DNA of 64,000 nt, taken from the NCBI GenBank assembly GCA_964457585.1, contig CAYWFU010000006.1, positions 8,846 to 72,845 of the forward strand. Reading direction: 5' to 3'. Positions 4,987-53,333 of the stretch are shown here, one piece after another. A program made the translations under genes and the position numbers. The notes under the pieces were generated by a model. The model made no database searches. It was given only the letters and a program-made list of their open reading frames with translations, and was not told the origin of the DNA. Origin of the DNA: an uncultured bacterium. Lineage in GTDB: Bacteria; JACRDZ01. How positions within the stretch are numbered: position 1 is the stretch's first letter; each line of letters opens with the position of its first letter.

Positions 4987-5117
4987 GGGGCTGTCCAAAA
5001 AGTTACAAAAATTAATTTTTTGTCATTCCCGCGAAAGCGGGAATTCAGTATTTAAGCCGATATTTAAAAGTCTGGATTCCGCACCAAGTGCGGAATGACA
5101 CCTTTTTGGACAGCCCC
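4987..5117. mobile_element. MITE-like element with 16-bp terminal inverted repeats and an internal GTCATTCCCGCGAAAGCGGGAAT palindrome
   Basis: ggggctgtccaaaaag (4987-5002) and ctttttggacagcccc (5102-5117); internal hairpins at ~5022-5048 and ~5071-5099. Confidence 0.7.
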
Positions 5118-5136
5118 AACTACAACATATTGTATT

Positions 5137-5158
5137 GTAGTTGCTCGATTTATCGAGC
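5137..5158 (+). repeat. GTAG-type REP (gtagttgctcgatttatcgagc)
   Basis: Identical copy at 32406-32427. Confidence 0.75.
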
Positions 5159-5272
5159 TTATTTTAAATTTTACATTATTCATTTTACAGTTTACAGTTG
5201 TTTTTTATTGGTTAAATTATACTAATTCATTATTTTTAACTTAACACCTACAGGATTAAGGGAGATTTTCAG

Positions 5273-6808: not shown

Positions 6809-8184
6809 ATATGTTTTTCGATACACATGTTCATCTAGATGATAATAAATATAATAATGATAGAGATAATGTAATAAATAGAGCTTTAAAAGAAGATGTA
6901 AATTTATTTTTAAACGCAGGAATAGATACTAAAAGCAATATTGAATCAATAAAATTAGCTGAAAAATATAGTTTTATATATGCGGCATGCGGATTTCACC
7001 CTCATGATGCTTCAAAATTCACTGAAGAAGATTACGAGATAATAAAAAAATTGATATCAAATGAAAAAGTTATAGGCATAGGTGAAATTGGGCTTGATTA
7101 TTACAGAAATCTTTCTCCGAAAAATATCCAGCAGAATGTTTTTAAAAGATTTATTAATCTGGCTAAAGAATCAAAAAAACCTATAATTCTTCATAGCCGT
7201 GATGCTTTTGATGACACAATCCGGATTTTAGAGGAAACAAATGCAAAAGAAATTGGCGGGATTGCGCATTGTTTTTCAGGAACAATTGATATGGCAAATA
7301 AATTCCTGGATATGAATTTTTATATTTCTTTTGCAGGACAGATAACATTTAAAAATGCCAGGAATATGAAGGAATTAATAGAGCAAATACCAATGGATCG
7401 CATTTTAATCGAAACAGACTGTCCATATATTAGCCCTGAACCACGCAGAGGATCCAGAAATGAACCTTCCTTTGTTAAATATACAGCTCAGAAAATAGCA
7501 GAAATCAAGCTTCTTTCAGCGGAGGATGTAGGGCGTATTACTAGAGTTAATGCAATAAAACTTTTTAATCTTCCTATAAGTTTAAATCCAGCAATAGTAT
7601 ATCCTATAAGGGATTCGATATATCTAAATATTACTAATCGCTGCAGTAATGATTGTTATTTTTGTATACGCACAAAACAGGACTATGTTAAAGGTCATAA
7701 TCTGCGAATAAGCAGTGAGCCAACATCAGCGGAAATTATTAAAAATGTGGAGCCGTTAATTAAAAAATACAGGGAAGTGGTATTCTGCGGTTATGGAGAG
7801 CCGTTATTACGGCTTGATACAGTACTTGAAGTAGCTAATGCATTGAGAGATAAAAGTGTAAAATATATCAGAATAAATACAAACGGACAGGGAAATTTAT
7901 TTTACAATGAGAATATTGTCCCGAAATTTAAAGAAATTATTGATGAAATTTGTATAAGTTTAAATGCTTCTGATAAAGAAGCATATATGAAGATATGTCA
8001 CCCGGAATTCGGTGAAAGAACTTTTGATGAAGTATTAAATTTTATAAAAGAATGCAAAAAGGTTATCCCGAAAGTTGTAATAACGTTTGTGGAATTGCCG
8101 GAAATAAATTTAGATGCTTGCAGAGCTATAGCGCAGAAGCTGGACGTAGCATATAAAATCAGGAAACTGGATGTAGTTGGGTGA
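6805..8184 (+). CDS. TatD-family nuclease fused to a TatD-associated radical SAM domain
   Basis: DTHVH, GEIGLDY and ETDCPY TatD motifs; C-terminal NITNRCSNDCYFC (CxxxCxxC) and VFCGYGEP. Confidence 0.9.
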   Translation: MNMFFDTHVHLDDNKYNNDRDNVINRALKEDVNLFLNAGIDTKSNIESIKLAEKYSFIYAACGFHPHDASKFTEEDYEIIKKLISNEKVIGIGEIGLDYYRNLSPKNIQQNVFKRFINLAKESKKPIILHSRDAFDDTIRILEETNAKEIGGIAHCFSGTIDMANKFLDMNFYISFAGQITFKNARNMKELIEQIPMDRILIETDCPYISPEPRRGSRNEPSFVKYTAQKIAEIKLLSAEDVGRITRVNAIKLFNLPISLNPAIVYPIRDSIYLNITNRCSNDCYFCIRTKQDYVKGHNLRISSEPTSAEIIKNVEPLIKKYREVVFCGYGEPLLRLDTVLEVANALRDKSVKYIRINTNGQGNLFYNENIVPKFKEIIDEICISLNASDKEAYMKICHPEFGERTFDEVLNFIKECKKVIPKVVITFVELPEINLDACRAIAQKLDVAYKIRKLDVVG

Positions 8185-8188
8185 TTGG

Positions 8189-8385
8189 TAAGCTTTCAGC
8201 CATCAGCTATCAGCTGTCAGCATTCAGTAAAAACATAGAAAAAACAAGGCGAAAACAAAACTTTTGATTCGATACATTTTTATTTCTGCATTTCAATATC
8301 TTTAAACTGATAGCTGAAAGCTGATGGCTGAACGCTTACCTTGCTTTTATTCTTTTAAGCTTTATAAACTGATGGCTGAACGCTT
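8189..8385. repeat. Inverted heptamer-repeat element (tcagcta-like / gctgata-like)
   Basis: aagctttcagccatcagctatcagctgtcagc ... ctgatagctgaaagctgatggctgaacgctta, with a second partial right end at ~8366-8385. Confidence 0.7.
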
Positions 8386-9157: not shown

Positions 9158-12100
9158 GTGATATCTATGAATAAAAAGTTAGTTATAATTTTACTTTTTA
9201 TTTTAATTATATTTTTATATTCTAAAAATTCTTTTGCAGTTGACATCACAGATGAAGAATGTCTAAGATGTCATATAATGAAAAATCCTCTTTTGCCTTT
9301 TGAGGAAAATAAACTGATTGAATTTAAAGAAGAATATGCAGCAATGGATTTTGGCGTTGCAGATGATATGATGTGTTATAGCTGTCATAATGGCTCTGTT
9401 GACGACCATCGTCATATTACATGGTTTGGACAAAGGCATAAAACTGATTTAAAACCAACACCCGAGATAAAAATCCCTCAAGGATTTCCTCTTAAAGAGG
9501 GGAAAATATATTGCGGCACATGTCATAGTCCGCATACTTTACCAAATAAAACATGGCTTCGAGCCTTAAATATCAATTCTTCTTATTGCAGAGAATGTCA
9601 TAGAACAAAAACAGGTAATACTCCAACAGGTAATCATCCATCGGAAACAGTTACTGAGAAGAAACAAGAAAAGATTATTGATGCAGGCGGTAGATATGGA
9701 GTTAATGAACAGGGAAAAGATATAATTATCTGTCAGACATGTCATGTAATTCATGGTTCACCGCCGGGAGAGAGGCTTTTAGTAGCTAGAAATGAAGGTG
9801 AAGGAATAGGTAATTCAGCTTTATGTGAAATCTGTCATACTAATAATCCAAGTAAACCTGAACGCGGCACTGGGATAGAAACGCATGCTACAAATGTAAG
9901 AGCAAAAAAAGCAATAATACCTCTTATATGGGGTAATGATACACCTGTTGTGGTGAGTTATAATGGAAATATTGTTTGCAGAACCTGTCATCAGCCGCAT
10001 AGGGCAAAAGATCAGCAATATTTACTTGTAGAAAAAAATGAAATAGGGCAGTTTTGTTCAAAGTGTCATCCAAGAGAATTTGGAAGAGGAAAAGGTAAAG
10101 ATAATATAGGAACGCATCCTTTAGGAATAAAACTCTCGCAGGGTATGGAAATTGAACCTCAATCCAGAATTAAACTTTTTGAAGGGACTATAACCTGCAA
10201 TAGCTGTCATACTGCTCATAATGCATTTAATACCGGCTCTGATGAAGGAATAGAAAAGGAAGAAATGCTGGGAATCTCAGAATTAAAAAAATTAGAAGAT
10301 ACAACCCTAATATCAGATACAACAAAAATAAAAAAAAGCGCTTTGTTTGATACAACATTCCAGATGGATACCACTAAATTAGATACAACTCAGGTTAAAC
10401 AGATTAAAAAGAAACAGTCATTATTAGTATATTCTAATAAAAATAATTATATATGTGAAAAGTGCCATACTAATAAAGTCGCACGAACACTTAAAGAAGC
10501 TGAAGCTAAAGGAACTCATCCTGTAAATATAACAAGTTCAAAAGTAACCATTCCTAAAATAATATTAAAAAAAGGCGGCAGGTTTGGAAAAATTAGAAAT
10601 AAACCGGTAATTATTTGTACTACATGTCATAAAGTTCATGGCGGAGAAATTGGAACTCCAAATTTAATTATTACAGACGCAGATGCAAGAATCTGTGGGT
10701 ATTGTCATTCAAATGTTAATGTTGGTTCAATAAGTGAAGCTGCAATTATCAGTACTCATCCGGTAAATATCAAACCAAAGAAACTGGAGATACCTGAAGA
10801 GATTATTAAAGCAGGCGGTAAATTAGGACTTAAAGGTGAGATTATTTGCTACACCTGTCATGGTGTTCATAAATCACGTGAAGCAACCAAAATATTGGTA
10901 ATTTCAAATGTTGAATCAAGTGATATTTGTGTTGTCTGTCATCCAAAGCAAAAAGTAGTTGATAATACTGAGCATAATTTAATCATCATTGCACCAAAAG
11001 AAGAAAATATTAAGGGAGATCGTATAAGAGAAGCAGGAGTTTGCGGCGCATGTCATATTGCTCATGGAGGCAAAGGTGCTAAAGTGTGGGCAAAAAATGT
11101 TCCTCCGATTAAGCCGGGTGAAGACCCTGTAGGAAAATTATGTTTAAGCTGTCATCAAAAAGGTCAGGTAGGAGAAAAAAAATTAGTTGGCGGATTCAGT
11201 CATCCGACTAATTTTGATATTGAGCGAGTGTCAGGAGAAACTGATTTGCCTTTATTTCTTGGAGAAGGCGTAAGAGTATACGATTCATTTATCATGGTAG
11301 ACGGCAAAAAAGTTATTGATAAATCAAAAAGAAAAGGCAAGGTAATGTGCGCTACCTGTCATGATGTGCATCAATGGGACCCGACAGATGAAAAAGCTGG
11401 CAGCAGAGTTGATACTGAAGGAGATGGAAGGAATAGTTTTTTACGGAAGAGAAATATTAAAAATTTTTTATGTATAGAATGTCATAAAGGTGAAACAACA
11501 ATTCTTGATACAGATCATGATCTTAATATTTCCGGCCGCTCGGAAAAAAATGTTCAAGGAAAAACAGTAATTGAAGATGGAGCATGTTCTGCATGTCATC
11601 TTATGCATAATGGTACAGGACCTAAAATCTGGTCGCGTAAAATACCGCCTGAAATTGAAAAAGAAGGTATTATCGCTAAATTATGCAAAACATGTCATAT
11701 TAAAGGGCAGATGGCTGAAAAAAAGGCAATTACAAAATACAGTCATCCAACAGACAGATCTATTAAATTAGTTGATAAAACAACGCGTTATCCGCTTTAT
11801 GATTCTTTTGGACAGAGGTATTTTAATAAACCATTGCTTGAAGCTTTAAAAACAGGTAAAGATATTGAAAAGTATTACAATACATCAGGGCTTGTAACCT
11901 GTGGAACCTGTCATGATGTTCATTTGTGGAACTATAAAAATCCCGATGACAGACCAAAGTCTAATATTGAAGGGACCGGGCTTAACAGTTTCCTGCGCGG
12001 TACAAAGGACAATACTTCAAATTTCTGTAAAGATTGTCATGAAGATAAATTTAAAATTGAAAAAACTGAACATGATATGGCTGTTGTTGAGAAAGATATT

Positions 12101-15100
12101 GTTAAAAAAGATATCGTTAACTCACAGGGGAAAACGATTCGTGATGAGGGGATATGCAGTGCGTGTCATTTAATTCATAATGGTAATGGGTTATATATGT
12201 GGGCAAGAGAAAATATTCCTGATGGGGACAGTGTAATGACACTTATCTGTACCGGCTGTCATAATAGAGGACAGATGGGTGAAAAAAAATCAACCGGGAA
12301 CCATAGTCATCCATGTGATTCACCAATAACAGACTGGAGAGTATCGCCGACATTGCCATTATATATTAGAGGACGAAAAGATCCTGATGGTAATATTGCA
12401 TGTTCCACCTGTCATAATTCACATGTATGGGAACCGATAATACAGGATTACGGGCCTGGTAAAAATACTGATGGTACGGTTTTAAACAGCTTTCTTAGGA
12501 TTCCAAATGATAGGAAATCTGCTTTATGCGGAAATTGTCATTTTGAAAATGTTCTTATTGTGGGGACAAAACATGATTTAAATCTCACTGCGCCAAAAGA
12601 AAAAAATGTAGCAGGGGAAACTGTTGCTGAATCAGGACCATGCGGTTCATGTCATTTAACGCATAATGCTCTGGAAGTTAAGCTCTGGTCCAAAGTCCCG
12701 GGTAAAATCGAAGGTGCAACAGAAGAAAAGGATCTTTTAACTGCTCTATGTAAAAGCTGTCATACAAAAGGAGGCCTTGCTGAAAAGAAGGAGATTATTG
12801 GATATAATCATCCAATAAATATTAAACAGATTGAAGCAGGATTGCCAACCAGCTTGCCTCTTTATGATGAGATGGGGAAGAAAAAATTTGATGGAAAAAT
12901 AACATGCAGTACCTGTCATGATCCTCATCGCTGGACACCCGGAGTAGATAAAGGCGGGCCTGGTAAAAAAACTGAAGGTGATGGACGTGACAGTTTTCTC
13001 AGGCTTGACAACCGTAAAGTTTCAGCTCTTTGCGTGGATTGTCATCAACGAGAAGGGTTGGTAGTCAATACTGATCACGACCTTTCTGTTACTGTTCCTG
13101 ATGAGGAAAATGTTGTTAAAGAAACTGTTGGAGTATCTGGAGCATGTTCTGCATGTCATGTTATGCACAATGGGAATGACATAAGACGATGGGCTAAACC
13201 TCTTGGCCCGGGAGATGATTATATTACCCAGCTATGTCACAGCTGTCATTCCGAAGGTAAATGCGCTGAGTCTAAAATAGGTGTTTATACACATTCCATT
13301 GGAGTTAAAATGCAGAAAGGCAGAACTACAACATTTCCTCTTTATACTAAAGAAGGTAAAAAGCAGAAAGATACTCTTATTACATGTGTAACATGTCATT
13401 ATTCTCATCAATGGAGTCCAACTCAATTTGAAAAAAATGTACTAAGTAAAGGATTATTTAGTTTTGAAAATATAAAAAGTAAAGTAATAGGAAATGTAGG
13501 TTATCCATCGGGTTCTTTTGTATACATAGATACTATTGATTCTTTTAAACCTGAAATTGGACAGCAATACGTAGTTTTTAAGAAAGGGAAAATAATTGCC
13601 CGTTGCATAGTGGATAAAATAAATCCTTTTTCTAAAACTCTAGAAGTGTTTGCCAGGGTAGCAGAATATGACCCAAATGAAAAAATAGAAAAAGGTGATT
13701 ATGTTGTTGAGAAAAAAAAGCTATCCAAAGGACTTGAAGGCAATGGTAGAAATAGTTTCCTGCGTAAACCTAATGATGAATCCACCAGTTTATGTTTTGA
13801 TTGCCATACAGAAAAAGAAACAATTGTAGGAACAGATCATGACTTTCGAGTCACTGCGCCAAAAGAAAGAAATATGATTGGCGAAACTGTATTTGACGGA
13901 GGATTATGTTCAGCATGCCACAGGTCGCATCAGGGAGCGTCAGTTTATATTTCTGCAAAACAGGTTGCTCCTAATCCTAAAGGAATAATTTATTCACCTA
14001 TCTGTTATGGATGTCATTTTCCAGGTGGAGCAGCAGAAAATAAAAGACTTGATGTGCATCATAAAATTATAACTTTCCCAACAGATGAAGAGATTAACGA
14101 ATATATTCAGAAGAATGGAAAAATGAAAGAATCAATGCGATTACAAATTCCTGATAAAAAATATGGGCTTGTTTTATATAATGAAGACGGAGAACTTGAT
14201 CAGGGGGATGCATTTAAAAAGAAAGTTGTTACCTGTTCTACGTGTCACAATGAACATGTCTGGGACCCAAATAATCTAGAAGATAAACATCCATGGGATT
14301 CTGCCACCAATTTTTATGCAAAAGCTGTTGAAGGTACAGATAAAAATAGTTATCTCAGATCACGCAATGATAAATGGCAATTATGCAATATATGTCATTT
14401 AGCAACAGTGCATTTGGAAACAGAAGAAATGATACGGCGTCTTGGACGTGATATTAAGACTATTGATTCTGCCCAGAAAATACTGGAAGAAAAAAAGAAA
14501 AAAGATGCTGAACTGGAAACGAAAAAGAAAGAGAAATTTGAAGAAGAAGAAAAAAAAGAAGAGATGGGAAAAGTTGCAATAATAAAATCCGTTAATAAAG
14601 ATTTAGATAGTCCCGATTATTTTTTAATTATGAAGCTAATTGGAGAAAATGCATTAAATAAAAAATCTCCAGGAAAATTTATTATCGGGATTAAAGAAAA
14701 TTTTGAAGGCAGTCAATGGGAAGAATATCGTAAAGAAGTCCAATATCGTATATCCATGGATACTGTTGCAAAAAATATATATATTAAATTTCAAGACAAA
14801 TTGGGGAATTACTCAGAATTATATTCTTTGGAGTTACCTCCAATTGTAATATCAATAAAACCTGATGAAGAAAAAAGCAAATTACCGAAACTTATACTTG
14901 GATTAAATGTTCGTAATGCAAAATCTATTAAGGTGGGAACAGATAAATATCTTGAAAAAGACAAATGGCTGCCATTTGAATCAACTTATACCTATATTTT
15001 TCCGGATGATAGTGCATTTGATAAAATTTATATTCAATTTAAGGATGATAAAGAAAATAAAACAGAAATAACAGGTATGTATACACCTGAAGATTTAATT

Positions 15101-16912
15101 AAACCTCGAGTTAGAAAATATGTTTATCGTGAACCAATTAAAATCATGGAAAATTTTGTAATTAGTATCGTTTTTAGTGAAACTTTAAATCCCAATATTA
15201 ATCCAAAGATAAAGATAACAAATCTGGATGAGGGTAAATCACCGCAATTACCAGAAGTGGGAACATATATTTCCACCAATGAGGAAAATGATACTTATAT
15301 GCTGGAGGGGATTAAGCTTACAAAGGAAATGGGCGGCAGATGGCTTATTTCTGTTGAAAGCGCTGAAGGTGTTATTAGAAATGTTATGGAACCGGTTGCT
15401 GATAAAATCATATTTTTTGATACAAGAGATAAAACACTTGATTTTTATAATTCAGTAAAATTTAAAATTAAAGAGGGAGAAAAAACACAAAATCCAGATA
15501 TAACTTTGCTTATGGAAGGCAAAGGCGCATATCAAATGATGATAAGCGAAAATGATCCTGCTTTTGAAAATTGTATGTGGGAACCTTTTGTTAGTGAAAA
15601 GAAATTTTTGATTACTCCAATTGTGGGGGAGAAAACTATTTATGTAAAATTCCGTAATGATGAAAAACTTGTTTCAGATGTATTTAATGAATCAATAGCA
15701 TTTATGAAAACTTCAAAAGAGGTTGATGTCTTATCAGGGAGTTTAATAGAAGATAAGACTTTAACTAAAGATGGCAGTCCTTATTATATCGTTGGTACAG
15801 TAAAAGTGGAACGTGGTGTTACGTTAACAATTGAACCGGGCGTTAAGTTATTATTTAGTGACTTTATGCGCGGAGATAAAGTTATTAGTAAAGGGAATCT
15901 GATTATAAGAGGTAATATAATCGCTAAAGGAACTCAAACTGATAATATTTTCTTTACATCTAAAAAAGAAAACCCGGAAATTGGCGATTGGGGAATGATT
16001 AGAATTGATAGAAATGTTACTGACAAGAAAAATGTTTTTGAAAATTGTTATATTACTTATGCAGAATACGGGATATGGGTTGAGACAGATAATCCAATTA
16101 TTACAAATTCAACATTTGAATTAATTAAAAATGATGCAATACATTTTGAAAGAGATTGTCGGGGTCAAATAAATGATAATACTATCAGAAATAATGGCGG
16201 AAGCGGTATTTTTTTAAGAGAAGCTTCTCCTGATATTTATAAAAATTCTATTGAAAATAATAAAGATGGAATAATATGCATTAATTCTGCGCTCCCTAAA
16301 ATAACGGATAATTTTTTAAGCAGTAATAATACCGCTATATCCTGTGAGAATATGGCAGCTCCAAGAATTATTAATGCAGTTGTTGAAAATAACAGAATCG
16401 GGATTAGAATTATGTCTTATTCATTCCCAACAGTTGTTAATTCAAATATCTCAGAAAATAAAGAATTTGGTATTTTTATCAGTGAGTCATGTCCTATGAT
16501 TTATAAAAATATTATACAAAAAAATAAAATTGGAGTATTTGTTGAAAAGGACTATAGAGATTTTAAAATTTCTCTTAACAATATTATGGAAAATACCGAA
16601 TATAATTTAAAAATAACAGACTATTGGCGTGATCTTTATGCTTCTGAAAATTTCTGGGGTTTTCAAGAAAAGAATGAAATAAAGAAAAAAATATATGATA
16701 AGGAAAACTATGAAAAAGAGCCAAAAGAGGGAGAGAAAAAAGAAGATGAAATGCCAATCTTTGATTTCTTATCAACAGAAGATGTTATGGCAGATAAAAT
16801 GAAAGAAGATGCTGGTAAAAGCACACAGCTTGAGTTTATTGAAAAAGTTTTTGGTGTTGTAAGATATTCACCTTTCTCCTTATTTAAGAACAATAATGCC
16901 GGGGTGCAGTAA
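9158..16912 (+). CDS. Giant multiheme c-type cytochrome (38 CxxCH) with C-terminal Ig-like repeats and a right-handed beta-helix
   Basis: Signal peptide; 38 CxxCH by manual count between 9260 and 14398; alternating CxxCHxxH / CxxCH pairs; C-terminal SPYYIVGTVKVERGVTLTIEPGV followed by N/G-rich beta-helix repeats. Confidence 0.92.
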   Translation: MISMNKKLVIILLFILIIFLYSKNSFAVDITDEECLRCHIMKNPLLPFEENKLIEFKEEYAAMDFGVADDMMCYSCHNGSVDDHRHITWFGQRHKTDLKPTPEIKIPQGFPLKEGKIYCGTCHSPHTLPNKTWLRALNINSSYCRECHRTKTGNTPTGNHPSETVTEKKQEKIIDAGGRYGVNEQGKDIIICQTCHVIHGSPPGERLLVARNEGEGIGNSALCEICHTNNPSKPERGTGIETHATNVRAKKAIIPLIWGNDTPVVVSYNGNIVCRTCHQPHRAKDQQYLLVEKNEIGQFCSKCHPREFGRGKGKDNIGTHPLGIKLSQGMEIEPQSRIKLFEGTITCNSCHTAHNAFNTGSDEGIEKEEMLGISELKKLEDTTLISDTTKIKKSALFDTTFQMDTTKLDTTQVKQIKKKQSLLVYSNKNNYICEKCHTNKVARTLKEAEAKGTHPVNITSSKVTIPKIILKKGGRFGKIRNKPVIICTTCHKVHGGEIGTPNLIITDADARICGYCHSNVNVGSISEAAIISTHPVNIKPKKLEIPEEIIKAGGKLGLKGEIICYTCHGVHKSREATKILVISNVESSDICVVCHPKQKVVDNTEHNLIIIAPKEENIKGDRIREAGVCGACHIAHGGKGAKVWAKNVPPIKPGEDPVGKLCLSCHQKGQVGEKKLVGGFSHPTNFDIERVSGETDLPLFLGEGVRVYDSFIMVDGKKVIDKSKRKGKVMCATCHDVHQWDPTDEKAGSRVDTEGDGRNSFLRKRNIKNFLCIECHKGETTILDTDHDLNISGRSEKNVQGKTVIEDGACSACHLMHNGTGPKIWSRKIPPEIEKEGIIAKLCKTCHIKGQMAEKKAITKYSHPTDRSIKLVDKTTRYPLYDSFGQRYFNKPLLEALKTGKDIEKYYNTSGLVTCGTCHDVHLWNYKNPDDRPKSNIEGTGLNSFLRGTKDNTSNFCKDCHEDKFKIEKTEHDMAVVEKDIVKKDIVNSQGKTIRDEGICSACHLIHNGNGLYMWARENIPDGDSVMTLICTGCHNRGQMGEKKSTGNHSHPCDSPITDWRVSPTLPLYIRGRKDPDGNIACSTCHNSHVWEPIIQDYGPGKNTDGTVLNSFLRIPNDRKSALCGNCHFENVLIVGTKHDLNLTAPKEKNVAGETVAESGPCGSCHLTHNALEVKLWSKVPGKIEGATEEKDLLTALCKSCHTKGGLAEKKEIIGYNHPINIKQIEAGLPTSLPLYDEMGKKKFDGKITCSTCHDPHRWTPGVDKGGPGKKTEGDGRDSFLRLDNRKVSALCVDCHQREGLVVNTDHDLSVTVPDEENVVKETVGVSGACSACHVMHNGNDIRRWAKPLGPGDDYITQLCHSCHSEGKCAESKIGVYTHSIGVKMQKGRTTTFPLYTKEGKKQKDTLITCVTCHYSHQWSPTQFEKNVLSKGLFSFENIKSKVIGNVGYPSGSFVYIDTIDSFKPEIGQQYVVFKKGKIIARCIVDKINPFSKTLEVFARVAEYDPNEKIEKGDYVVEKKKLSKGLEGNGRNSFLRKPNDESTSLCFDCHTEKETIVGTDHDFRVTAPKERNMIGETVFDGGLCSACHRSHQGASVYISAKQVAPNPKGIIYSPICYGCHFPGGAAENKRLDVHHKIITFPTDEEINEYIQKNGKMKESMRLQIPDKKYGLVLYNEDGELDQGDAFKKKVVTCSTCHNEHVWDPNNLEDKHPWDSATNFYAKAVEGTDKNSYLRSRNDKWQLCNICHLATVHLETEEMIRRLGRDIKTIDSAQKILEEKKKKDAELETKKKEKFEEEEKKEEMGKVAIIKSVNKDLDSPDYFLIMKLIGENALNKKSPGKFIIGIKENFEGSQWEEYRKEVQYRISMDTVAKNIYIKFQDKLGNYSELYSLELPPIVISIKPDEEKSKLPKLILGLNVRNAKSIKVGTDKYLEKDKWLPFESTYTYIFPDDSAFDKIYIQFKDDKENKTEITGMYTPEDLIKPRVRKYVYREPIKIMENFVISIVFSETLNPNINPKIKITNLDEGKSPQLPEVGTYISTNEENDTYMLEGIKLTKEMGGRWLISVESAEGVIRNVMEPVADKIIFFDTRDKTLDFYNSVKFKIKEGEKTQNPDITLLMEGKGAYQMMISENDPAFENCMWEPFVSEKKFLITPIVGEKTIYVKFRNDEKLVSDVFNESIAFMKTSKEVDVLSGSLIEDKTLTKDGSPYYIVGTVKVERGVTLTIEPGVKLLFSDFMRGDKVISKGNLIIRGNIIAKGTQTDNIFFTSKKENPEIGDWGMIRIDRNVTDKKNVFENCYITYAEYGIWVETDNPIITNSTFELIKNDAIHFERDCRGQINDNTIRNNGGSGIFLREASPDIYKNSIENNKDGIICINSALPKITDNFLSSNNTAISCENMAAPRIINAVVENNRIGIRIMSYSFPTVVNSNISENKEFGIFISESCPMIYKNIIQKNKIGVFVEKDYRDFKISLNNIMENTEYNLKITDYWRDLYASENFWGFQEKNEIKKKIYDKENYEKEPKEGEKKEDEMPIFDFLSTEDVMADKMKEDAGKSTQLEFIEKVFGVVRYSPFSLFKNNNAGVQ

Positions 16913-24704: not shown

Positions 24705-25307
24705 ATGAAAAAATTATCAAATACAAAAAGCAATATTGATTTAAATGCAGAAAATAATTTTGCAAATTTATCTGCAATAAAAATTTTAGTAACTGGTGCA
24801 TTTAACAGCGGTAAAACACATTTTATTAAAACGATTAGCAATAATTTTATGCTTAACACAGAAAAAAATGTTTCAGATCCCCATATAAAGTCGAAAAAGC
24901 TTACTACTGTGGCAATGGATTTTGCAAAAACAAAATTGGAAAATACCCCTGACCTTTTTTTCTTTGGGACACCAGGACAGAAGCGTTTCGATTTCATGTG
25001 GGAAATTCTGTCTTTTAAGATGCTGGGTTGTATTATTATGGTTGACAGTTATCAGTTCCATGAATCAAAGGAAGAAACACAGGAAATTCTTAATTATTTT
25101 TTAAATTTGCCTTATAGCGTACCATTAATAATTGCAGCAAATAAACAGGATTTACCTCAAGCACTAACACCCGATGAAATACGACAGGAATTATCTCTCT
25201 CGAAAAAAATTTCTATTTTACCGTGTATTGCTACACAAAAAGAAAAAGTTAAAGAAATTTCCATGTATCTTATAAATAATATTTTAGGGCAAAGGAAAAA
25301 TAATTAA
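24705..25307 (+). CDS. Small Ras-like GTPase (conservon CvnD / MglA-like group)
   Basis: G1 GAFNSGKT, TTVAMDF, G3 GTPGQKRFDFMW, G4 NKQD. Confidence 0.85.
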   Translation: MKKLSNTKSNIDLNAENNFANLSAIKILVTGAFNSGKTHFIKTISNNFMLNTEKNVSDPHIKSKKLTTVAMDFAKTKLENTPDLFFFGTPGQKRFDFMWEILSFKMLGCIIMVDSYQFHESKEETQEILNYFLNLPYSVPLIIAANKQDLPQALTPDEIRQELSLSKKISILPCIATQKEKVKEISMYLINNILGQRKNN

Positions 25308-26752
25308 TGGCATATGATAGCCTAAAAGATTTTATTGAAAAATTGGAAGAGAAAAAGCAATTAAAAAGAATTTCAGTTGAAGTTGATCCAATATTAGAAA
25401 TAAGTGAAATAACAAGCCGTGTAAATGAAAAATTCGGTCCGGCATTATTATTTGAAAAAGTTAAGGGATATAATACACCTGTTCTTATCAATGCTTTTGG
25501 TTCAGATTATCGTATGGCATTGGCAATGGATGAAAATTCAATTTCTGATGTTGCATCTAGAATTGAAAAACTGCTTAAATCAGAAATGCCGATTACATTA
25601 TGGGATAAATTGCGTTCTGTTTTGAAGCTTAAGGAATTTGCGCATTTAATTCCAAAAGTTGTTGATACAGGGCCATGTAAGGAAGTGATAATAAAGAATA
25701 ATCCATCATTGGATATTTTTCCCATAATAAAATGCTGGCCGCATGATGGAGGTAAATTCATTACTTTACCAATGGTTCATACGAAAGATCCTGATTCTGG
25801 AATACGGAATCACGGCATGTATCGTTTACAGGTATTTGATAATCAAACAATTGGTATGCACTGGCATCTGCATAAACACGGCGCAAAGCATTATCGCCGC
25901 TCTTGCGAACTTGGGAAAAAATTAGAAGTGGCAATTTCACTTGGAGGAGATCCAGCCATTACTTATGCCGCAAGCGCGCCGCTACCAGAGAATATTGATG
26001 AAATGATTTTAGCCGGTTTTTTGCGTCGTAAATCAGTTGAATTAGTTAAATGTGAAACCGTCAACTTAGAAGTCCCTGCATGCGCTGAAATTGTGCTTGA
26101 AGGTTATGTTAATCCTGGCGAGACGCGGCTTGAAGGTCCTTTCGGAGATCATACAGGATATTACTCTTTGCCGGATCAATATCCGGTATTTCATCTTACC
26201 TGTATCACTCATAGAAAAAATCCTATATATCCAACCACTGTAACAGGCAAGCCACCGCGTGAAGACTGTTACATGGGACGTGCAAGTCAAAAAATATTTT
26301 TCCCGTTGCTTAAAATGACTTTACCTGAACTTGTGGATATGGAATTACCTCTGGAAGGAGTATTTCATAATTTAGCTGTTGTATCAATTGACAAGCAATA
26401 TCCCACACATGCTAAAAAAACCATGCATGCACTTTGGGGTTTAGGACAGATGATGTTTACCAAAATAATTATTGTTGTTGATAAAGACACTGATGTGCAT
26501 AATTTATCTGAAGTCATCTGGAAAGTGGGAAATAATATTGACCCAAAATATGATATTGTTTTTACTGAAGGTCCAATAGATGCTTTAGATCATGCTTCAC
26601 GCACGCGTTATATTTCTACTAAAATGGGGATTGATGCCACACGTAAATGGAAGGAAGAAGGTTTCGACCGTGAATGGCCTGAGATAATTAAAATGAGTCC
26701 GGAAATTAAATCTCTGGTTGATGAAAAATGGAAGGATTATGGAATAGAATAG
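25307..26752 (+). CDS. UbiD-family decarboxylase (menaquinone-biosynthesis type)
   Basis: EGPFGDHTGYY, NHGMYRLQV, KMGIDAT. Confidence 0.9.
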   Translation: MAYDSLKDFIEKLEEKKQLKRISVEVDPILEISEITSRVNEKFGPALLFEKVKGYNTPVLINAFGSDYRMALAMDENSISDVASRIEKLLKSEMPITLWDKLRSVLKLKEFAHLIPKVVDTGPCKEVIIKNNPSLDIFPIIKCWPHDGGKFITLPMVHTKDPDSGIRNHGMYRLQVFDNQTIGMHWHLHKHGAKHYRRSCELGKKLEVAISLGGDPAITYAASAPLPENIDEMILAGFLRRKSVELVKCETVNLEVPACAEIVLEGYVNPGETRLEGPFGDHTGYYSLPDQYPVFHLTCITHRKNPIYPTTVTGKPPREDCYMGRASQKIFFPLLKMTLPELVDMELPLEGVFHNLAVVSIDKQYPTHAKKTMHALWGLGQMMFTKIIIVVDKDTDVHNLSEVIWKVGNNIDPKYDIVFTEGPIDALDHASRTRYISTKMGIDATRKWKEEGFDREWPEIIKMSPEIKSLVDEKWKDYGIE

Positions 26753-26777: not shown

Positions 26778-28088
26778 ATGAAAAATTTTTTTTTAATGCT
26801 TATTATTTTGTCCAGTATGATTTTTATATGTGGAAATATCCCGATACTTGCTGAAGAAGAGGAATCAAATCTAATTATTTCTGTTTATAAAAATTTTGCT
26901 CTGGTTATGGAAAAAAGGGAATTTGAATTAAAAAAAGGGAAGAATGAATTACAGATTGAAAACATTCCAGTTAAGATTGACCCAAATTCAATTTTTTTAG
27001 ATATTATTAAAACAGATAAGAATAAGGATAAAAAAGATTTATCCTGTCAAATTCTTGAGCAAAATTTTGAATACGATTTTAGCAATATCGATAAATTAAT
27101 TTCAAAATATCTTAACCTTGGCAAAAAATTGAAAATTACATTACAGGATGGAAAATTACTAGAAGGAAAGCCTGTTCATCTTGATGAGGGATATCTAATA
27201 CTGGGAGAACTTGAAGAAGATTCAGAGCCAATAGTTATTAATAGAAATTTTATTAACAGTATTGAATTTCCTGAACATCCTGATAGTTTAGTTGTAAAAC
27301 CAACCCTTTCATTAAAATTAAAAGTATCTAATAAAGATGATTATAAAATTGCTCTTAATTATAAAGTAAATGATATTAAATGGAAAGCTAATTATATTGG
27401 AATAATAAATTTAAAAGATCTGGAAATGAACCTTTATGGATATGTATCAATAACCAATAATTCCGGTTATGCTTATAACAACGCAAAAATAAAATTATTT
27501 TCAAACAATGAATCAGACTCTATTTCATATTTATTAGAACGTAAAGTAGCATTGAAAAATGAGGAAAACGGATTTTCTCTTTTTGACAATAAAGTGCTTA
27601 AAATTAGTAAAGTATTTTGTTATAATAGTAAAATTGATAAAAATAAAGTTAAAGTTGCTATAAGTATACAGAATGATGAACAAAATGGATTAGGATTTTT
27701 TCTTTTAAATGGTAAAATAGATTTATATAAAAAAGATATAGCTGATTCTCATTTATGGATTAAAGAAGATAATATGTCGGATGTAACAATAGGTAAAAAT
27801 GTAAGATTTTTAATTGAGGATGCAGAAGATATAACTGCAGAACGCCGAGAATTAGAAGTTAAAAATATCAGTCCTGATGTAAATGAAAAAACATTTGAAA
27901 TTGAATTGAAAAGCAATCAGAAGGAACAGATAAATATAGCTGTTATTGAAAATATTGATGGCGAGTGGGAAGTAATAGAAAAAACAGATCCTTATAGTAA
28001 AAAAGATTTATATACCATTGAGTTTGCAGCATTAGTTCCGCCACAGGAGAAAAAAGTAATTAAATATAAGGTGCGGATTAAGAAATAA
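26778..28088 (+). CDS. DUF4139-like exported protein
   Basis: Signal peptide; ISVYKNFALVMEKR, WKANY, ITNNSG..Y.NA pattern. Confidence 0.65.
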   Translation: MKNFFLMLIILSSMIFICGNIPILAEEEESNLIISVYKNFALVMEKREFELKKGKNELQIENIPVKIDPNSIFLDIIKTDKNKDKKDLSCQILEQNFEYDFSNIDKLISKYLNLGKKLKITLQDGKLLEGKPVHLDEGYLILGELEEDSEPIVINRNFINSIEFPEHPDSLVVKPTLSLKLKVSNKDDYKIALNYKVNDIKWKANYIGIINLKDLEMNLYGYVSITNNSGYAYNNAKIKLFSNNESDSISYLLERKVALKNEENGFSLFDNKVLKISKVFCYNSKIDKNKVKVAISIQNDEQNGLGFFLLNGKIDLYKKDIADSHLWIKEDNMSDVTIGKNVRFLIEDAEDITAERRELEVKNISPDVNEKTFEIELKSNQKEQINIAVIENIDGEWEVIEKTDPYSKKDLYTIEFAALVPPQEKKVIKYKVRIKK

Positions 28089-28103
28089 AAAAGGAGATAT
28101 ACC

Positions 28104-28697
28104 ATGAAATCGAATTTGATTAAAATTTTTTGTTTTTTGTATTTTTTATTTTCTTTTCTTATTATCTTTGGCGAGGAAGATAATCCTGATAAAAAATTAT
28201 TTGAACAGAAATGCAGTTTATGCCATACAATTGAAAGGCCTTTATCAAAGAAAAAAACTTCAGAGGATTGGAGAACTACTGTAGAAACAATGCGTAAAAA
28301 AAATACAAAACATATTAATGAAGATGAAGCAATAATAATTGCAAATTATCTTATCTCTACCCGCGGTCAGCCGGAAATTAATAAAGTTAAGGATCCTAAT
28401 AATTTAACAGAACTGGAAATGAAACATGCGCCAGTAGTCACAATTACCTGGGATAATCCTGAAAAAGGTGAAGTAACAATATCAGTAGAAGTGGGAAAGA
28501 CACATCACCCAATGGGAAAAGATCATTATATTAAATTTATTGAAATTTTTATTGATCATAATTCTATTATTAAAAAAATTCTTACACCTGAAGATAAACC
28601 AGTTATGGAATTTAAAACGAAAATTGCAGAAGGAGCAAGTATTACTGCGCTTATAGAATGCAACAAGCATGGTTTATGGGAAGGTGGAATCAGATAA
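28104..28697 (+). CDS. Exported mono-heme cytochrome c fused to a superoxide reductase (desulfoferrodoxin/neelaredoxin-like) domain
   Basis: Signal peptide; KCSLCH...W..TVETM; then KHAP, HPM, HYI and CNKHGLW, giving all 4 His + Cys SOR iron ligands. Confidence 0.85.
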   Translation: MKSNLIKIFCFLYFLFSFLIIFGEEDNPDKKLFEQKCSLCHTIERPLSKKKTSEDWRTTVETMRKKNTKHINEDEAIIIANYLISTRGQPEINKVKDPNNLTELEMKHAPVVTITWDNPEKGEVTISVEVGKTHHPMGKDHYIKFIEIFIDHNSIIKKILTPEDKPVMEFKTKIAEGASITALIECNKHGLWEGGIR

Positions 28698-30021
28698 AAA
28701 TCTGCAATCTATTAATCACCAATCCGGATAATAACTTGGGATAAAAATAAGTGGATTTCTGCGGCATTAGTTCTCCGTGTCCGGAGATTTCCATAACCTG
28801 ATTACTGCGGGTAGGATTCAAAAAAAGAACTAATTGGAATTCTTTGTTTTTTATTTTTTCAACACATTCATTAAAATTATGATTATAAACAATGTGTTTG
28901 CCATCTTTTAAATGATGATGATTTATATCAAGGAACTGCTCTATAATTAAATTATGCAGAATTGCAACATCAAGTTCTTTCCATGCTTTAGATTTGCTAT
29001 GGTCAGAATACCTTTCAAGTGCTTTATCATCTTTTAGAACCAAAAGATAATATTCATTTTTTTCAGTATAAAGACCAAATACATGCTTATTTTTTCCTAT
29101 TTCTTCCATTCTATTTATAATTGTAGATTCAGGATTATCTTCTGTTTTTAGTCTGGTTACAATAAAAAACTCCGATAATTTTTCTAAAAACATAGCGATA
29201 TTTATTTCTGGCAGATTATGAATTAATCTGTGTGTTGGTAAAATAATCAATCCAGGGTCATCTATATTGACCAGCATAAACATAACATAATTATAAGGTT
29301 CATTTCCTGTATGGTTTGGATTATTTTCTTTTCTTTCATTGCGATAATTTAAAGCTGTTTCATACCGGTGATGCCCATCAGCAATAACAATAGTTTTTTT
29401 GCTCATTAAAATTGTTATTTTATTTATTGTTTCAGTATCTGATATTTTCCATAGTTTATTTACTGTTCCTTCATGATCGACAATATTTATTGTTGGTTCA
29501 TTTTTATAAATATGAGAAAGTTCATTTTCCATGATAAAACTTTTATCTTCATATAGACCAAAAATCTGGCTGAAATTTGCTTCGCAATTACGCATAAGTT
29601 CTAATCGGTCTTTTTTTGGTGCAGATAGAGTTTGTTCATGGGGACATATTATTCCTTGTGAGAAATCTTCTAATTTAACCAATGAAATAAAACCATGACG
29701 AACTTTAACTGAAGAATTGTCCTTTAATTTATATTCCTGTGTATAAAAATATATTGATGGTTGATCTTCATAAACAAGAATATTATTTTTAAGCCATGAA
29801 TAAAAAAAGTTTTTAGCGCGAGTATATTTATTTTCTGCTGTTGAATCTTCAGGATATTCCATCCCTAAAATGAGGCGGATAATATTATCAGGATGCTTAT
29901 CATAATACAGCTTTTGCCCTTGCGGTGAAATTACATCGTATGGGGGAGCTGTAACTTGCGAAAGATCCGAAAATATTTTTTGATTATATCTTATTCCCTT
30001 GAAAGGAAGTACTTTGGCCAT
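28690..30021 (-). CDS. DUF1015 family protein
   Basis: APPYDVIS, PHEQT, IADGHHRYETA, MPQKSTYFYPKLLSGL. Confidence 0.88.
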   Translation of the reverse strand: MAKVLPFKGIRYNQKIFSDLSQVTAPPYDVISPQGQKLYYDKHPDNIIRLILGMEYPEDSTAENKYTRAKNFFYSWLKNNILVYEDQPSIYFYTQEYKLKDNSSVKVRHGFISLVKLEDFSQGIICPHEQTLSAPKKDRLELMRNCEANFSQIFGLYEDKSFIMENELSHIYKNEPTINIVDHEGTVNKLWKISDTETINKITILMSKKTIVIADGHHRYETALNYRNERKENNPNHTGNEPYNYVMFMLVNIDDPGLIILPTHRLIHNLPEINIAMFLEKLSEFFIVTRLKTEDNPESTIINRMEEIGKNKHVFGLYTEKNEYYLLVLKDDKALERYSDHSKSKAWKELDVAILHNLIIEQFLDINHHHLKDGKHIVYNHNFNECVEKIKNKEFQLVLFLNPTRSNQVMEISGHGELMPQKSTYFYPKLLSGLVINRLQIFI

Positions 30022-33795: not shown

Positions 33796-34701
33796 ATGAA
33801 TTTTAAAGACTGGTTTTTAGAAACAAGGCCTCAATTTCTTATTCTTTCTGTAATTTTAATTTTACTTGGTACCTCAGTAGCATTTTATAATAATACCTTT
33901 AATCTAATAATATTTATTTTAACAATGATCGGTCTTGTCAATATGCATATCAGCTGCAATGTGCTTAATGATTATTACGATTATAAAAGCGGAATTGATC
34001 TTCATACTGCACCAACTCCATTTTCCGGCGGAAGCGGTTTTTTGCCATCAGGAAAATTAAATCCGCAGGGTGTTTTTAAGTTAGGAATGATAACCGCAGG
34101 TATAGGAATTTTAATAGGTATTTATTTCTGCTTAACTGTTGGATGGAAATTACTGCCTATTGTGATTGTTGGAGCAATCGCTACTTTTTTTTATAATACA
34201 TTTTTTTCAAAAATAATGGCTGGAGAAATTTCTGCCGGACTGGGATTAGGCTTGCTTCCAATAATTGGAACTTATTTTGTATATACAGGTGAGTATAATA
34301 CGCAATCATTTTTTGCAGGAATACCGCCGTTCCTTCTTGTATTTAATCTTCTGCTTTTAAACGAATTCCCTGATACTGAAGCAGATAAAAAAGGCGGCAG
34401 AAAACATATTGTAATTGTATTGGGACAAAAAACCGCAGCATGGATATATACAGCTTTTGCTATTTCCGTATATATCTGGATTGTTTTTGGGATTGCATCA
34501 GGAGTGATGCCTGTCTGGACAGTTCTGGGATTGCTTACACTCCCTCTTGCATTTAAAGCTATTCAGGGAGCTTTGAAATTCAGAGACATCCGTGAAAAAT
34601 TTATACCTGCGCAGGGCGCAAATGTTGGTATGGTTCTAATTACTCAAATATTATTAGCTTTAGGTTATTTTATCTCTCATTGGAGCAATATTAAAATTTA
34701 A
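33796..34701 (+). CDS. UbiA/MenA-like prenyltransferase
   Basis: NVLNDYYDYKSGID and NEFPDTEAD Asp-rich motifs; multiple TM helices. Confidence 0.85.
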   Translation: MNFKDWFLETRPQFLILSVILILLGTSVAFYNNTFNLIIFILTMIGLVNMHISCNVLNDYYDYKSGIDLHTAPTPFSGGSGFLPSGKLNPQGVFKLGMITAGIGILIGIYFCLTVGWKLLPIVIVGAIATFFYNTFFSKIMAGEISAGLGLGLLPIIGTYFVYTGEYNTQSFFAGIPPFLLVFNLLLLNEFPDTEADKKGGRKHIVIVLGQKTAAWIYTAFAISVYIWIVFGIASGVMPVWTVLGLLTLPLAFKAIQGALKFRDIREKFIPAQGANVGMVLITQILLALGYFISHWSNIKI

Positions 34702-34724: not shown

Positions 34725-36611
34725 GTGACTAAACTACTTGATTTAATAAATAAACCCGATGATCTTAAAAAAATTCCACAAACGCAATTATCTGACTTAG
34801 CTCAAGAAATAAGAGAGACAATAATTAATACTGTTTCACAGACAGGCGGACATCTGGCATCCAGTCTGGGTGTTGTTGAGTTAACAATAGCTCTGCATTA
34901 TATATTAAATTGCCCGTCTGATAAAATTATATGGGATGTAGGACATCAATGTTATGCTCATAAACTACTTACCGGTAGAAAAAATAAATTCATGACTCTG
35001 AGGCAATTTGAAGGTATCAGCGGATTTCCGTGTAAAAGTGAAAGTGAATGCGATCCTTTTGGAACGGGACACAGCGGAACTTCTATTTCGGTAGCGCTTG
35101 GAATGGCAATAGCGCGCGATTTAAATCATCGTAACAATAAAATTGTCGCTGTTATTGGTGATGGCTCAATGACTTCAGGCATGGCTTTTGAAGCATTAAA
35201 CCATGCCGGGCATTTAAAAAAAGATTTAATTGTTATTTTAAATGATAATGAGATGTTTATCTCTCCCAAAGTTGGAGCGCTGGCTTCTTATCTTACACGT
35301 ATATTTTCAAGCCCGACATATACTCGCTTCAGAGAAGAATTCGATAATTTTCTGGAATCAATACCAAAAGTCGGTACTAAAGTTCACAATATAGCAAAAC
35401 GTTTTGATGAAAATATGCGTTCCTTATTTGCTCCTGGCATGATTTTTGAGGAAATGGGATTCGATTACGTAGGCCCTACTAATGGACATAATTTTAATGA
35501 TTTAATTAAGACAATTCAGAATATAGCTTTAATGAAGGGACCTGTTCTCCTGCATGTTATAACAAAAAAAGGTAAAGGATACGAACCAGCTGAAAAGTTT
35601 CCGGTTGCATTTCATGGAGTTGATAAATTTGAGATTTTAACAGGCAAAGCATTAAAAATAACTTCCGACCGTCCTTCATATACTAAAATTTTTGGTGATA
35701 CTATGATTGAGCTGGGGAAAGAATATAAAAATTTAGTAACGATTACCGCTGCAATGCCTGATGGTACCGGGCTAGCGAATTTTTCAGAGGTTTTTCCCGA
35801 TAGATTTTTTGATGTTGGAATCGCTGAACAGCATGCCGTAACTTTAGCCGCTGGCATGTGCAATGACGGTCTAAAACCTGTTGTCGCAATTTATTCAACA
35901 TTTTTGCAGAGAGCGTTTGACCAGATTATACATGATACCTGTATTCAAAATCTACCTGTTGTTTTTGCAATTGATAGAAGCGGGATTGTCGGGCAGGATG
36001 GAAAAACTCATCAGGGGATTTTTGACATATCTTATCTGCGTCTTATTCCAAATATTATTATAATGTCCCCACGCGATGAAAATGAACTCCGTCATATGCT
36101 GAAAACAGCAATAGAATATCGAGAACATCCTATAGCTATTCGTTATCCCCGTGCTGAAGGATTGGGGATTGAACTGGATAAAGAATTGAAAATTTTACCA
36201 ATCGGGAAAAGTGAAATTTTGGTTGAAGGTAAAGATATAGTAATTTTTGGTTTTGGATTTACAGTTCATTTAGCTCTTATAGCTGCCGGGATATTGAAAG
36301 AAAAGCACAATATTTGCGCAACTGTTGTTAACTCGAGATTTGCTAAACCACTTGATAGTGATTTAATAAAAAAATTTGCTCAAGAAATACCGCGTTTTGT
36401 AACTGTTGAGGAAAATACATTAATCGGTGGTTTTGGCAGTGCAATTCTGGAATTTCTTGAACAGGAGAACTTATTATCTAAAGTTAAAGTATCCAGAATA
36501 GGATTGCCTGATAAATTCATTGAACATGGACATCCGAAAATTTTACGGGATAAATATAATATTAAAAGTGATGCTATTGTATCAAAAGTGCTTGAGGTGA
36601 TGAATAATTAA
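34725..36611 (+). CDS. dxs: 1-deoxy-D-xylulose-5-phosphate synthase
   Basis: GGHLASSLG, WDVGHQ, GDGSMTSG..FEALN, GIAEQHA. Confidence 0.97.
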   Translation: MTKLLDLINKPDDLKKIPQTQLSDLAQEIRETIINTVSQTGGHLASSLGVVELTIALHYILNCPSDKIIWDVGHQCYAHKLLTGRKNKFMTLRQFEGISGFPCKSESECDPFGTGHSGTSISVALGMAIARDLNHRNNKIVAVIGDGSMTSGMAFEALNHAGHLKKDLIVILNDNEMFISPKVGALASYLTRIFSSPTYTRFREEFDNFLESIPKVGTKVHNIAKRFDENMRSLFAPGMIFEEMGFDYVGPTNGHNFNDLIKTIQNIALMKGPVLLHVITKKGKGYEPAEKFPVAFHGVDKFEILTGKALKITSDRPSYTKIFGDTMIELGKEYKNLVTITAAMPDGTGLANFSEVFPDRFFDVGIAEQHAVTLAAGMCNDGLKPVVAIYSTFLQRAFDQIIHDTCIQNLPVVFAIDRSGIVGQDGKTHQGIFDISYLRLIPNIIIMSPRDENELRHMLKTAIEYREHPIAIRYPRAEGLGIELDKELKILPIGKSEILVEGKDIVIFGFGFTVHLALIAAGILKEKHNICATVVNSRFAKPLDSDLIKKFAQEIPRFVTVEENTLIGGFGSAILEFLEQENLLSKVKVSRIGLPDKFIEHGHPKILRDKYNIKSDAIVSKVLEVMNN

Positions 36612-53315: not shown

Positions 53316-53333
53316 CTTGACATAGGAGTAAGC

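Follow-up and report, generated by a model that had tools for sequence, protein, structure and literature searches.

Can a superoxide reductase (SOR) work outside the cytoplasm and carry a heme as its own electron donor? SORs are textbook cytoplasmic enzymes of anaerobes that depend on rubredoxin, and the question is raised by a gene at positions 28104–28697 (+ strand) of a 64,000-nucleotide stretch of DNA from an uncultured bacterium (lineage JACRDZ01; assembly GCA_964457585.1, contig CAYWFU010000006.1, positions 8,846 to 72,845). This whole stretch, called here the window, is of groundwater metagenome origin and has about 31% GC. Its LepA shares 82–84% identity with proteins labelled Candidatus Desantisbacteria and Candidatus Poribacteria and no more than 66% with any other match, which places the host among the uncultured candidate-phylum bacteria. 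A first-pass annotation had described the product of the gene as a periplasmic SOR with its own heme donor, and this description appears to be supported, as far as computation goes, by the domains, the ligands, the fold, the signal and the recurrence of the architecture. The architecture itself, a monoheme cytochrome c module followed by a SOR domain (cyt c-SOR), can be considered confirmed with very high confidence. The protein is best described as a member of a rare, uncharacterised class of SOR with a heme c as second centre and Sec-dependent export, which is already present in the databases. As to its function, we think it probable, with moderate confidence, that it is a Sec-exported SOR with two centres, in which the heme stands in place of the desulforedoxin centre of the 2Fe-SORs.

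The gene is a complete open reading frame of 197 codons plus stop, with an ATG start, as read from the sequence. It begins 15 nucleotides beyond the stop of a DUF4140 gene (26778–28088), and it is probably co-transcribed with that gene and with the UbiD gene (25307–26752). Its features are the following.

28093–28096, + strand: Shine-Dalgarno sequence GGAG, 7 nucleotides before the ATG, read directly from the sequence
28104–28697, + strand: cyt c-SOR fusion protein, identical in an independent assembly
28104–28172, + strand: predicted Sec-type signal peptide, residues 1–23, from a heuristic scan
28173–28373, + strand: monoheme class-I-like cytochrome c module, residues 24–90, of the SorB / QHNDH-alpha heme-domain family
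28212–28226, + strand: heme c attachment motif C37-S-L-C40-H41, with the two thioether Cys and the proximal His
28290–28292, + strand: M63 in TVETM, probable distal axial heme ligand, from conservation and alignment to 1JJU
28374–28694, + strand: SOR domain (centre II or neelaredoxin type), residues 91–197, from PF01880, PDB matches and the AlphaFold2 (AF2) model
28416–28427, + strand: active-site loop E105-M106-K107-H108-A-P, with the first His ligand, the catalytic Lys at -1 and a Glu at -3
28506–28526, + strand: H135-P-M-G-K-D-H141 (HPM, HYI), second and third His ligands, H-x5-H
28659–28670, + strand: C186-N-K-H189, axial Cys ligand and fourth His ligand

The open reading frame and every motif that had been listed for it are in place, and the set of motifs goes far beyond chance. 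An independent Logan assembly of the same population matches positions 27600–29129 without a single difference, and the junction of the two domains is also bridged by a contig from another run; therefore, the reading frame is not an artefact of assembly. A scan for promoters and terminators around the gene gave results no better than shuffled sequence in this AT-rich DNA.

The identity of the C-terminal domain is the best founded part of the assignment. Pfam PF01880 (Desulfoferrodox) matches residues 102–194 over positions 3–97 of the 98 in the model, with 71.3 bits against a cut-off of 22.2 (E=1e-19). The best PDB sequence matches found with HMMER are centre II of the desulfoferrodoxins of Desulfoarculus baarsii and Desulfovibrio desulfuricans, and H108, H135, H141, C186 and H189 align with H49, H69, H75, C116 and H119 of the D. 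baarsii SOR. The iron-ligand pattern H ... H-x5-H ... C-x2-H, with four His and one Cys, is present, and K107, directly before the first His ligand, aligns with the catalytic K48 of D. baarsii. The closest relatives of the domain are ordinary 1Fe-type SORs, with 40–47% identity over the domain. An AF2 model built on a 53-sequence alignment reached a mean predicted local distance difference test score (pLDDT) of 95.2, with 96–98 over residues 100–197 (AF2 on the single sequence gave a pLDDT of 53). When the model was compared with the PDB by Foldseek, ranks 1–25 were all SORs, with E of about 5e-8 and TM scores of 0.55–0.78 on target length; SoxY/SoxZ, which have the same fold, ranked next. Model and matches fit the seven-stranded immunoglobulin-like beta-sandwich of SORs. 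Thus, the SOR domain with all its iron ligands stands as it was first proposed, in Pfam match, alignment and fold.

The N-terminal half was studied by an exhaustive HMMER search of 1.84 billion representatives, which returned 1,317 matches at E<=1e-3. Among the best 150 of these 1,317 matches, 96 are proteins built of one to eight copies of the module with a CxxCH in each copy, and 12 of the 96 are stand-alone exported monoheme cytochromes of about 90 residues, 40–50% identical to residues 24–90; against such small cytochromes the N-terminal half scores E values down to about 1e-14. The profile of the module finds 1JJU (E=3e-12) and 1JMX (2e-11), that is, heme domain 1 of the alpha subunit of quinohemoprotein amine dehydrogenase (QHNDH), and 2BLF_B (1.4e-8), which is SorB, the cytochrome subunit of sulfite dehydrogenase. 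The single sequence matches the NCBIfam SorB model (NF052246) weakly, with 27.1 bits against a cut-off of 93. On sequence grounds, homology of the module to the SorB / QHNDH-alpha family appears secure; its equivalog status does not. The motif C37-S-L-C40-H41 is invariant in 7/7 fusions and in 14/14 heme modules. M63, which aligns with the Met of TVTRMM in 1JJU, is likewise invariant in the 14 modules, and its equivalent is found in six of the seven fusions, the remaining one (P0065) having a Cys there. In the AF2 model the module forms four helices between residues 28 and 87. The monoheme domain with CSLCH and a distal Met in TVETM, as originally annotated, is thus well supported by an invariant CxxCH, an invariant Met and the QHNDH / SorB profile match, and would bind a single heme c.

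The two modules are joined head to tail with only 2–3 residues between them. In stand-alone cytochromes of the family the sequence ends with ...YLxxxRG, G88 being the equivalent position here, and the counterpart of E91-INKVKDPNNLT opens the stand-alone SORs. The linker had been called short, and at about 2–3 residues it is even shorter than that description suggested. The active-site loop E105–H108 begins some 17 residues past the joint. Residues 97/98 align with residues 38/39 of desulfoferrodoxin (Dfx), just past the desulforedoxin domain, so that, topologically, the heme module sits where the 2Fe-SORs have their FeCys4 centre.

The fusion is not confined to the window. The exhaustive search showed that the architecture recurs in eight diverged homologues, P0003, P0011, P0015, P0017, P0021, P0065, P0151 and P0152 (P0277 is a cluster mate of P0017), all with both modules in the same order. 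They come from eight samples other than that of the window, are 28–47% identical, and have intact frames. Three clades can be distinguished. Clade A comprises the window protein, P0003 and P0151, with 42–48% identity to the window protein and a short joint; clade B (P0011, P0017, P0065) has a linker of 25–30 residues; and in clade C (P0015, P0021, P0152) an Asn or Asp stands at the position of the fourth His, H189 being kept in clades A and B. H108, H135, H141 and C186 are invariant across the fusion alignment (n=7), including the H-x5-H pair in 7/7. The Lys at -1 is kept in clade A (3/3) and not in clades B and C, which carry K/R at -2. To judge from these residues, clade C may have a different iron coordination or a different chemistry. 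In a neighbour-joining (NJ) tree of the SOR domains the three fusion clades are not united, and clade A has short SORs that lack an N-terminal extension as its nearest neighbours; with only about 100 residues, such a tree cannot tell a single fusion event from several.

The clade C fusions, of 197 residues (loci L002, 8001–8594, and L131, 2794–3387), have CSLNG or CNVDG at the site of the lost fourth His; they keep the heme motif, three His and the Cys, and have no Lys at -1.

Each cluster of fusions contains one or two sequences among about 15 billion proteins. One of them, P0151, is GenBank MEW6087099.1, named 'MAG: desulfoferrodoxin family protein [bacterium]'. Patterns of clade A run against 185,579 species-representative genomes found SOR-only loci and no fusion, the genome of the window being apparently not among them. 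A scan of JGI metagenomes gave cytochrome-only loci and one SOR-only locus among the matches listed, and no fusion, and a word-indexed homology search with the single protein matched only the window protein itself. Full-text literature searches, with subscription-only reviews such as the 2019 SOR/FDP review outside their scope, returned no description of a heme-linked SOR. The earlier remark that no characterised example was known agrees with this, as no publication on the architecture was found and the family stands in the databases under a generic name only.

The next step of the question is whether the protein leaves the cytoplasm. Its N-terminus consists of MKSNLIK, a hydrophobic core IFCFLYFLFSFLIIF and a G, with cleavage predicted at IFG|EED after residue 23 by a heuristic scan of the n-, h- and c-regions. 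The n-region has two basic residues (K2, K7), the core is about 15 residues long, and the 12-residue hydrophobicity is 2.7. This is the single site in the N-terminus with -3/-1 residues compatible with signal peptidase I (SPase I). Twin-arginine translocation (Tat) was rejected for the window protein, given that residues 1–35 hold no RR motif, and lipoprotein targeting was rejected in the absence of a lipobox. The same heuristic scan gives each of the nine fusions a Sec-type signal, without an RR motif in any of them, and the exported N-terminus proposed at the outset is thus predicted throughout the family.

The stand-alone SOR relatives are different. An N-terminal extension is absent from 19 of the 42. 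Another 15 carry Tat signals, 4 of these together with a lipobox, while 2 are Sec-like, 2 show a Cys4 motif at the N-terminus and the remaining 4 belong to none of these groups; the exported ones are thus 15 Tat, with signals of the RRxFLK type, against 2 Sec. Covalent attachment of heme needs an unfolded apoprotein and takes place outside the cytoplasm, whereas Tat carries folded, metallated proteins. Sec signals in all the fusions, against mostly Tat in the exported stand-alone SORs, are what would be expected if covalent heme attachment forces the use of Sec. Export of the unfolded protein by Sec would imply, in turn, that the His4Cys iron site is loaded after export. The proposal of an extracytoplasmic SOR therefore holds insofar as a Sec-type signal is present. 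Its location is no novelty, however, as exported SORs are already known as the TAT-SOR class and 15/42 of the relatives have Tat signals.

From these data we infer a mechanism, which extends to export and cleavage of the protein, loading of heme and iron, activity as a SOR, the physiological donor and the path and direction that the electrons take. The unfolded precursor would cross the cytoplasmic membrane, and the cytochrome c maturation system would attach heme to C37 and C40, with H41 and M63 as axial ligands. The C-terminal beta-sandwich would fold outside the cytoplasm and bind one iron through H108, H135, H141, H189 and C186. The Fe(II) would then reduce superoxide (O2.-) to H2O2, with K107 attracting and protonating the substrate and E105 possibly capping the ferric state. 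The His/Met heme would re-reduce the Fe(III), within or between subunits. Centre II potentials of SORs are roughly +200 to +350 mV, which is high enough to take electrons from typical His/Met c-type hemes. The heme would be recharged by periplasmic c-type cytochromes, in replacement of the cytoplasmic rubredoxin donor.

Several points weigh against this mechanism and should be taken together. Some concern the match to known families: the single sequence scores 24.5 bits with PF09098, 0.7 under the cut-off of 25.2, and the SOR domain scores 53.2 bits with NCBIfam TIGR00332, below the cut-off of 61.9 (TIGR00320 gives 50.6 bits against a cut-off of 146.9). To judge from these scores, the SOR domain of the window protein is a divergent member of the family and not an equivalog. 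The predicted template modelling score (pTM) of the AF2 model is 0.70 only. Others concern export: most exported SOR relatives use Tat and not Sec, and we know of no precedent among SORs for the loading of a His4Cys iron in the periplasm. The lost fourth His in clade C means that the family may not be functionally uniform. Moreover, the fusion family is extremely rare and has no conserved gene neighbourhood, and none of the RNA-seq runs searched holds the cyt c-SOR gene. Finally, the position of the canonical E47 (D. baarsii) is taken by M106, and the Glu is found one residue earlier, E105 at -3 instead of -2.

This last point deserves a closer look. The Glu, which is the sixth ligand of the ferric state, is not known to be essential for SOR catalysis. 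E105 is invariant in the fusion family, and natural SORs with an altered Glu/Lys loop have been crystallised (PDB: Ignicoccus hospitalis, with E23A and T24K entries, and the Nanoarchaeum equitans enzyme). In the 52 closest relatives of the SOR domain, E-x-K-H is found in 26/52, E-x-x-H in 21/52 and E-K-H in 0/52. The displaced Glu pointed out by the first-pass annotation is thus confirmed as E-M-K-H by the alignment, but it is no peculiarity of this protein, being the norm in its SOR clade.

Among the alternatives, the one that survives best changes the location of the enzyme and not its catalysis. The signal might remain uncleaved and tether the protein to the outer face of the cytoplasmic membrane, near quinol-linked cytochromes. 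The long h-region of about 15–16 residues with a mean hydropathy of 2.7 is in line with such an anchor, as is the modelling of residues 2–21 as one continuous helix by AF2, and the sole candidate cleavage site, IFG|EED, departs from the canonical pattern, lacking AxA and being followed by acidic residues. On the other hand, homologues have ordinary SPase I sites (IFA|ESD in P0151, TLA|QMP in P0003, LFA|ESK in P0015), and, in the same family, stand-alone cytochromes are periplasmic proteins of the usual cleaved type. We therefore regard an uncleaved anchor as unlikely, although it deserves to be kept in mind.

Slightly less likely still, in our opinion, is that the protein is not primarily a SOR. 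Its His4Cys site, supplied with electrons by the heme, might act on another small periplasmic oxidant, such as O2, H2O2, NO or Fe(III) chelates, or the whole might be a two-centre electron carrier in extracellular electron transfer. The loss of the fourth His in clade C speaks for such a role, and so do the scores under the NCBIfam SOR cut-offs, the SOR-like repeats in giant non-SOR proteins and the sharing of the fold with SoxY/SoxZ. The surroundings point the same way, as P0021 adjoins a multiheme cytochrome and an Rrf2 regulator, and a 38-heme protein is encoded on the contig of the window. Nevertheless, no SOR ligand is missing from the window protein, which also has the catalytic Lys with a Glu close by; ordinary 1Fe-type SORs are its nearest relatives, and its best structural matches are all SORs. 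Moreover, we know of no other chemistry that has been established for a SOR-type iron site. That the gene is an artefact (a chimeric assembly, a frameshift joining two genes or a decaying pseudogene) might be suspected from the great rarity of the family and the metagenome source, but it is effectively refuted by the identical independent assembly and the second-run contig across the junction, by the eight homologues with intact frames and the same module order in other samples, by a joint at precisely the point where both stand-alone domain families have their natural ends, and by the conservation of all functional residues.

If the protein is read as an exported SOR with a heme as second centre, its place among the known systems can be specified. 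SORGOdb distinguishes Dx-SOR, SOR (including class III, class IV methanoferrodoxin and TAT-SOR), HTH-Dx-SOR and ten 'atypical' fusions (PMC3116461), and the word 'cytochrome' is absent from the SORGOdb paper (PMC3116461). The Sor/rubrerythrin system is normally placed in the cytoplasm (PMC545781), and rubredoxin is the usual proximal donor of SOR (PMC7280497). The 2Fe-SORs or Dfx (D. baarsii 2JI1/1VZG, D. desulfuricans 1DFX) share with the window protein the Fe[His4Cys] C-terminal domain, the Lys before the first His and an N-terminal accessory redox domain that joins few residues before the active-site loop. They differ in being cytoplasmic, with a desulforedoxin FeCys4 centre and E-K-H, whereas the window protein has a c-type heme motif, a Sec signal and E-x-K-H. 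No CxxC...CC motif and no PF06397 match were found in the window protein, its Cys residues before the SOR domain being C10, within the signal peptide, C37 and C40. The 1Fe-SORs or neelaredoxins (Pyrococcus furiosus 1DO6, Archaeoglobus fulgidus 4BFF, Ignicoccus hospitalis 4BK8, Nanoarchaeum equitans 6GQ8, Giardia 4D7P) have the same fold and ligand set, but they are cytoplasmic, single-domain and reduced by rubredoxin. TAT-SORs (e.g., Geobacter metallireducens Gmet_2613, PMC3116461), a type common among the SOR relatives of the window protein, have a single SOR domain that is also predicted to lie outside the cytoplasm; unlike the window protein, they have a twin-arginine signal, are exported folded and metallated, and lack a heme module.

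Two further comparisons concern the partner of the SOR domain. Methanoferrodoxin (SORGOdb class IV) shows that a SOR domain can be fused to another kind of second redox centre, although in this cytoplasmic protein the centre is an Fe-S cluster, whereas here it would be a heme c in an exported protein. SorB (2BLF_B) and heme domain 1 of QHNDH-alpha (1JJU, 1JMX; PF09098) belong to the same small helical monoheme family as the N-terminal module, and their hemes serve as an electron relay that links a periplasmic catalytic centre with external cytochromes. The heme of those enzymes is an acceptor, with a molybdenum or quinone cofactor as the source of its electrons, whereas the heme of the window protein would donate them. 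Finally, the Cu,Zn superoxide dismutase SodC, which is periplasmic in E. coli (PMC3116461), is a functional analogue in the removal of periplasmic superoxide. It is an unrelated protein that works by dismutation, making O2 and needing no reductant, whereas a SOR makes only H2O2 and needs electrons.

The genomic context offers some hints on the electron supply. The cyt c-SOR gene is the last of a tight run on the + strand that comprises genes for a GGDEF protein, a small GTPase, UbiD, the secreted DUF4140 protein and cyt c-SOR. A convergent DUF1015 gene (28690–30021, - strand) overlaps its 3' end by 8 nucleotides (28690–28697), with no terminator-like structure between them, and SecF and SecD come after the DUF1015 gene. 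Around the fusion gene are found a UbiD-family decarboxylase (25307–26752), a UbiA prenyltransferase (33796–34701) and a DXP synthase (DXS; 34725–36611), the latter two 5 kb downstream. UbiD, UbiA and DXS are consistent with quinone/isoprenoid biosynthesis.

A secreted protein of 2,584 residues with 38 CxxCH motifs is encoded 11 kb upstream of the fusion gene (9158–16912, + strand). Pfam finds in it Paired_CXXCH_1, cytochrome c7/c3 and MtrC/MtrF domain II/IV, and its C-terminal region is right-handed beta-helix/NosD-like. These domains make it a candidate for a role in extracellular electron transfer or as a redox protein of the surface. Its presence on the contig indicates that the host matures and exports c-type cytochromes on a large scale, and an exposed electron-transfer apparatus of this kind would make superoxide upon oxygen intrusion. 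The suggestion that the enzyme is fed from a menaquinone/multiheme network thus finds the 38-heme protein and UbiD/UbiA on the same contig, but this evidence is circumstantial only.

The gene neighbourhoods of the eight homologues have nothing consistent in common. Some of them include oxidative-stress or redox genes, such as MsrA/B near P0151 and an Rrf2 regulator and multiheme cytochrome before P0021. At P0152 (L131, 2332–3524) there is an OsmC-family peroxiredoxin gene upstream and a 40-residue desulforedoxin 15 nucleotides downstream; the latter has the CxxC...CC motif and no signal peptide, being apparently cytoplasmic beside an exported SOR-like protein. In a Rosetta-stone test, separate SOR and cytochrome genes side by side were looked for in 135 loci, and only L104 had a SOR gene and a cytochrome gene of this family together. 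That locus (4318–8279) encodes a rubrerythrin, a thiol peroxidase, a ferritin-like protein, a cytoplasmic 2Fe-SOR with EKHVP and a flavin reductase, and an exported monoheme cytochrome of the window heme-module family lies 1.5 kb downstream on the same strand. The two were rejected as direct partners, since the SOR is a canonical cytoplasmic Dfx and the cytochrome is exported.

Other observations were made along the way. Tandem SOR-like beta-sandwich repeats, two to five per protein and with partial domain matches, occur in P0027 (2,343 residues), P0084, P0102, P0105 and P0141 (2,989 residues), and it seems from these matches that the SOR fold has found a second use as a repeating unit in giant proteins that are probably extracytoplasmic. 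Elsewhere in the window, positions 51848–55298 (+ strand) hold a heterodisulfide-reductase-like trio of a 4Fe-4S dicluster protein, a CCG-domain protein and a 654-residue FAD/FeS HdrA-like protein. A single CRISPR-DR7 repeat (Rfam) lies at 55716–55748, with one degenerate second copy 115 nucleotides away (region 55713–55858), and genes for Cas4, Cas1, Cas6b, Csc2 and a DUF4143 AAA ATPase adjoin it (56150–63774, - strand), an arrangement that resembles a cas locus whose array is minimal or decayed.

The chances seem to us evenly balanced that the window protein is the first example of a new class of SORs, 'cytochrome c-SOR', with electron entry by heme, export by Sec, periplasmic loading of iron and wiring to a multiheme network. 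The rarity of the family limits its ecological weight, and we think that its interest is mainly mechanistic and evolutionary, as a case of a SOR domain shuffled with alternative redox partners. If the proposed function is correct, the protein would provide a natural electron-transfer pair from heme to Fe[His4Cys] within one 20-kDa polypeptide, of use for bioinorganic and electrochemical study, and it raises the question of how such a non-heme iron site can be loaded in the periplasm. Reductive removal of superoxide would have left the cytoplasm and become linked to the cytochrome c pool, which suggests how organisms with large exposed multiheme systems, such as the 38-heme protein of this contig, may cope with oxygen intrusions in groundwater. 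In this way, a metal-respiring anaerobe could shield its exposed electron-transfer chain from superoxide without releasing O2.

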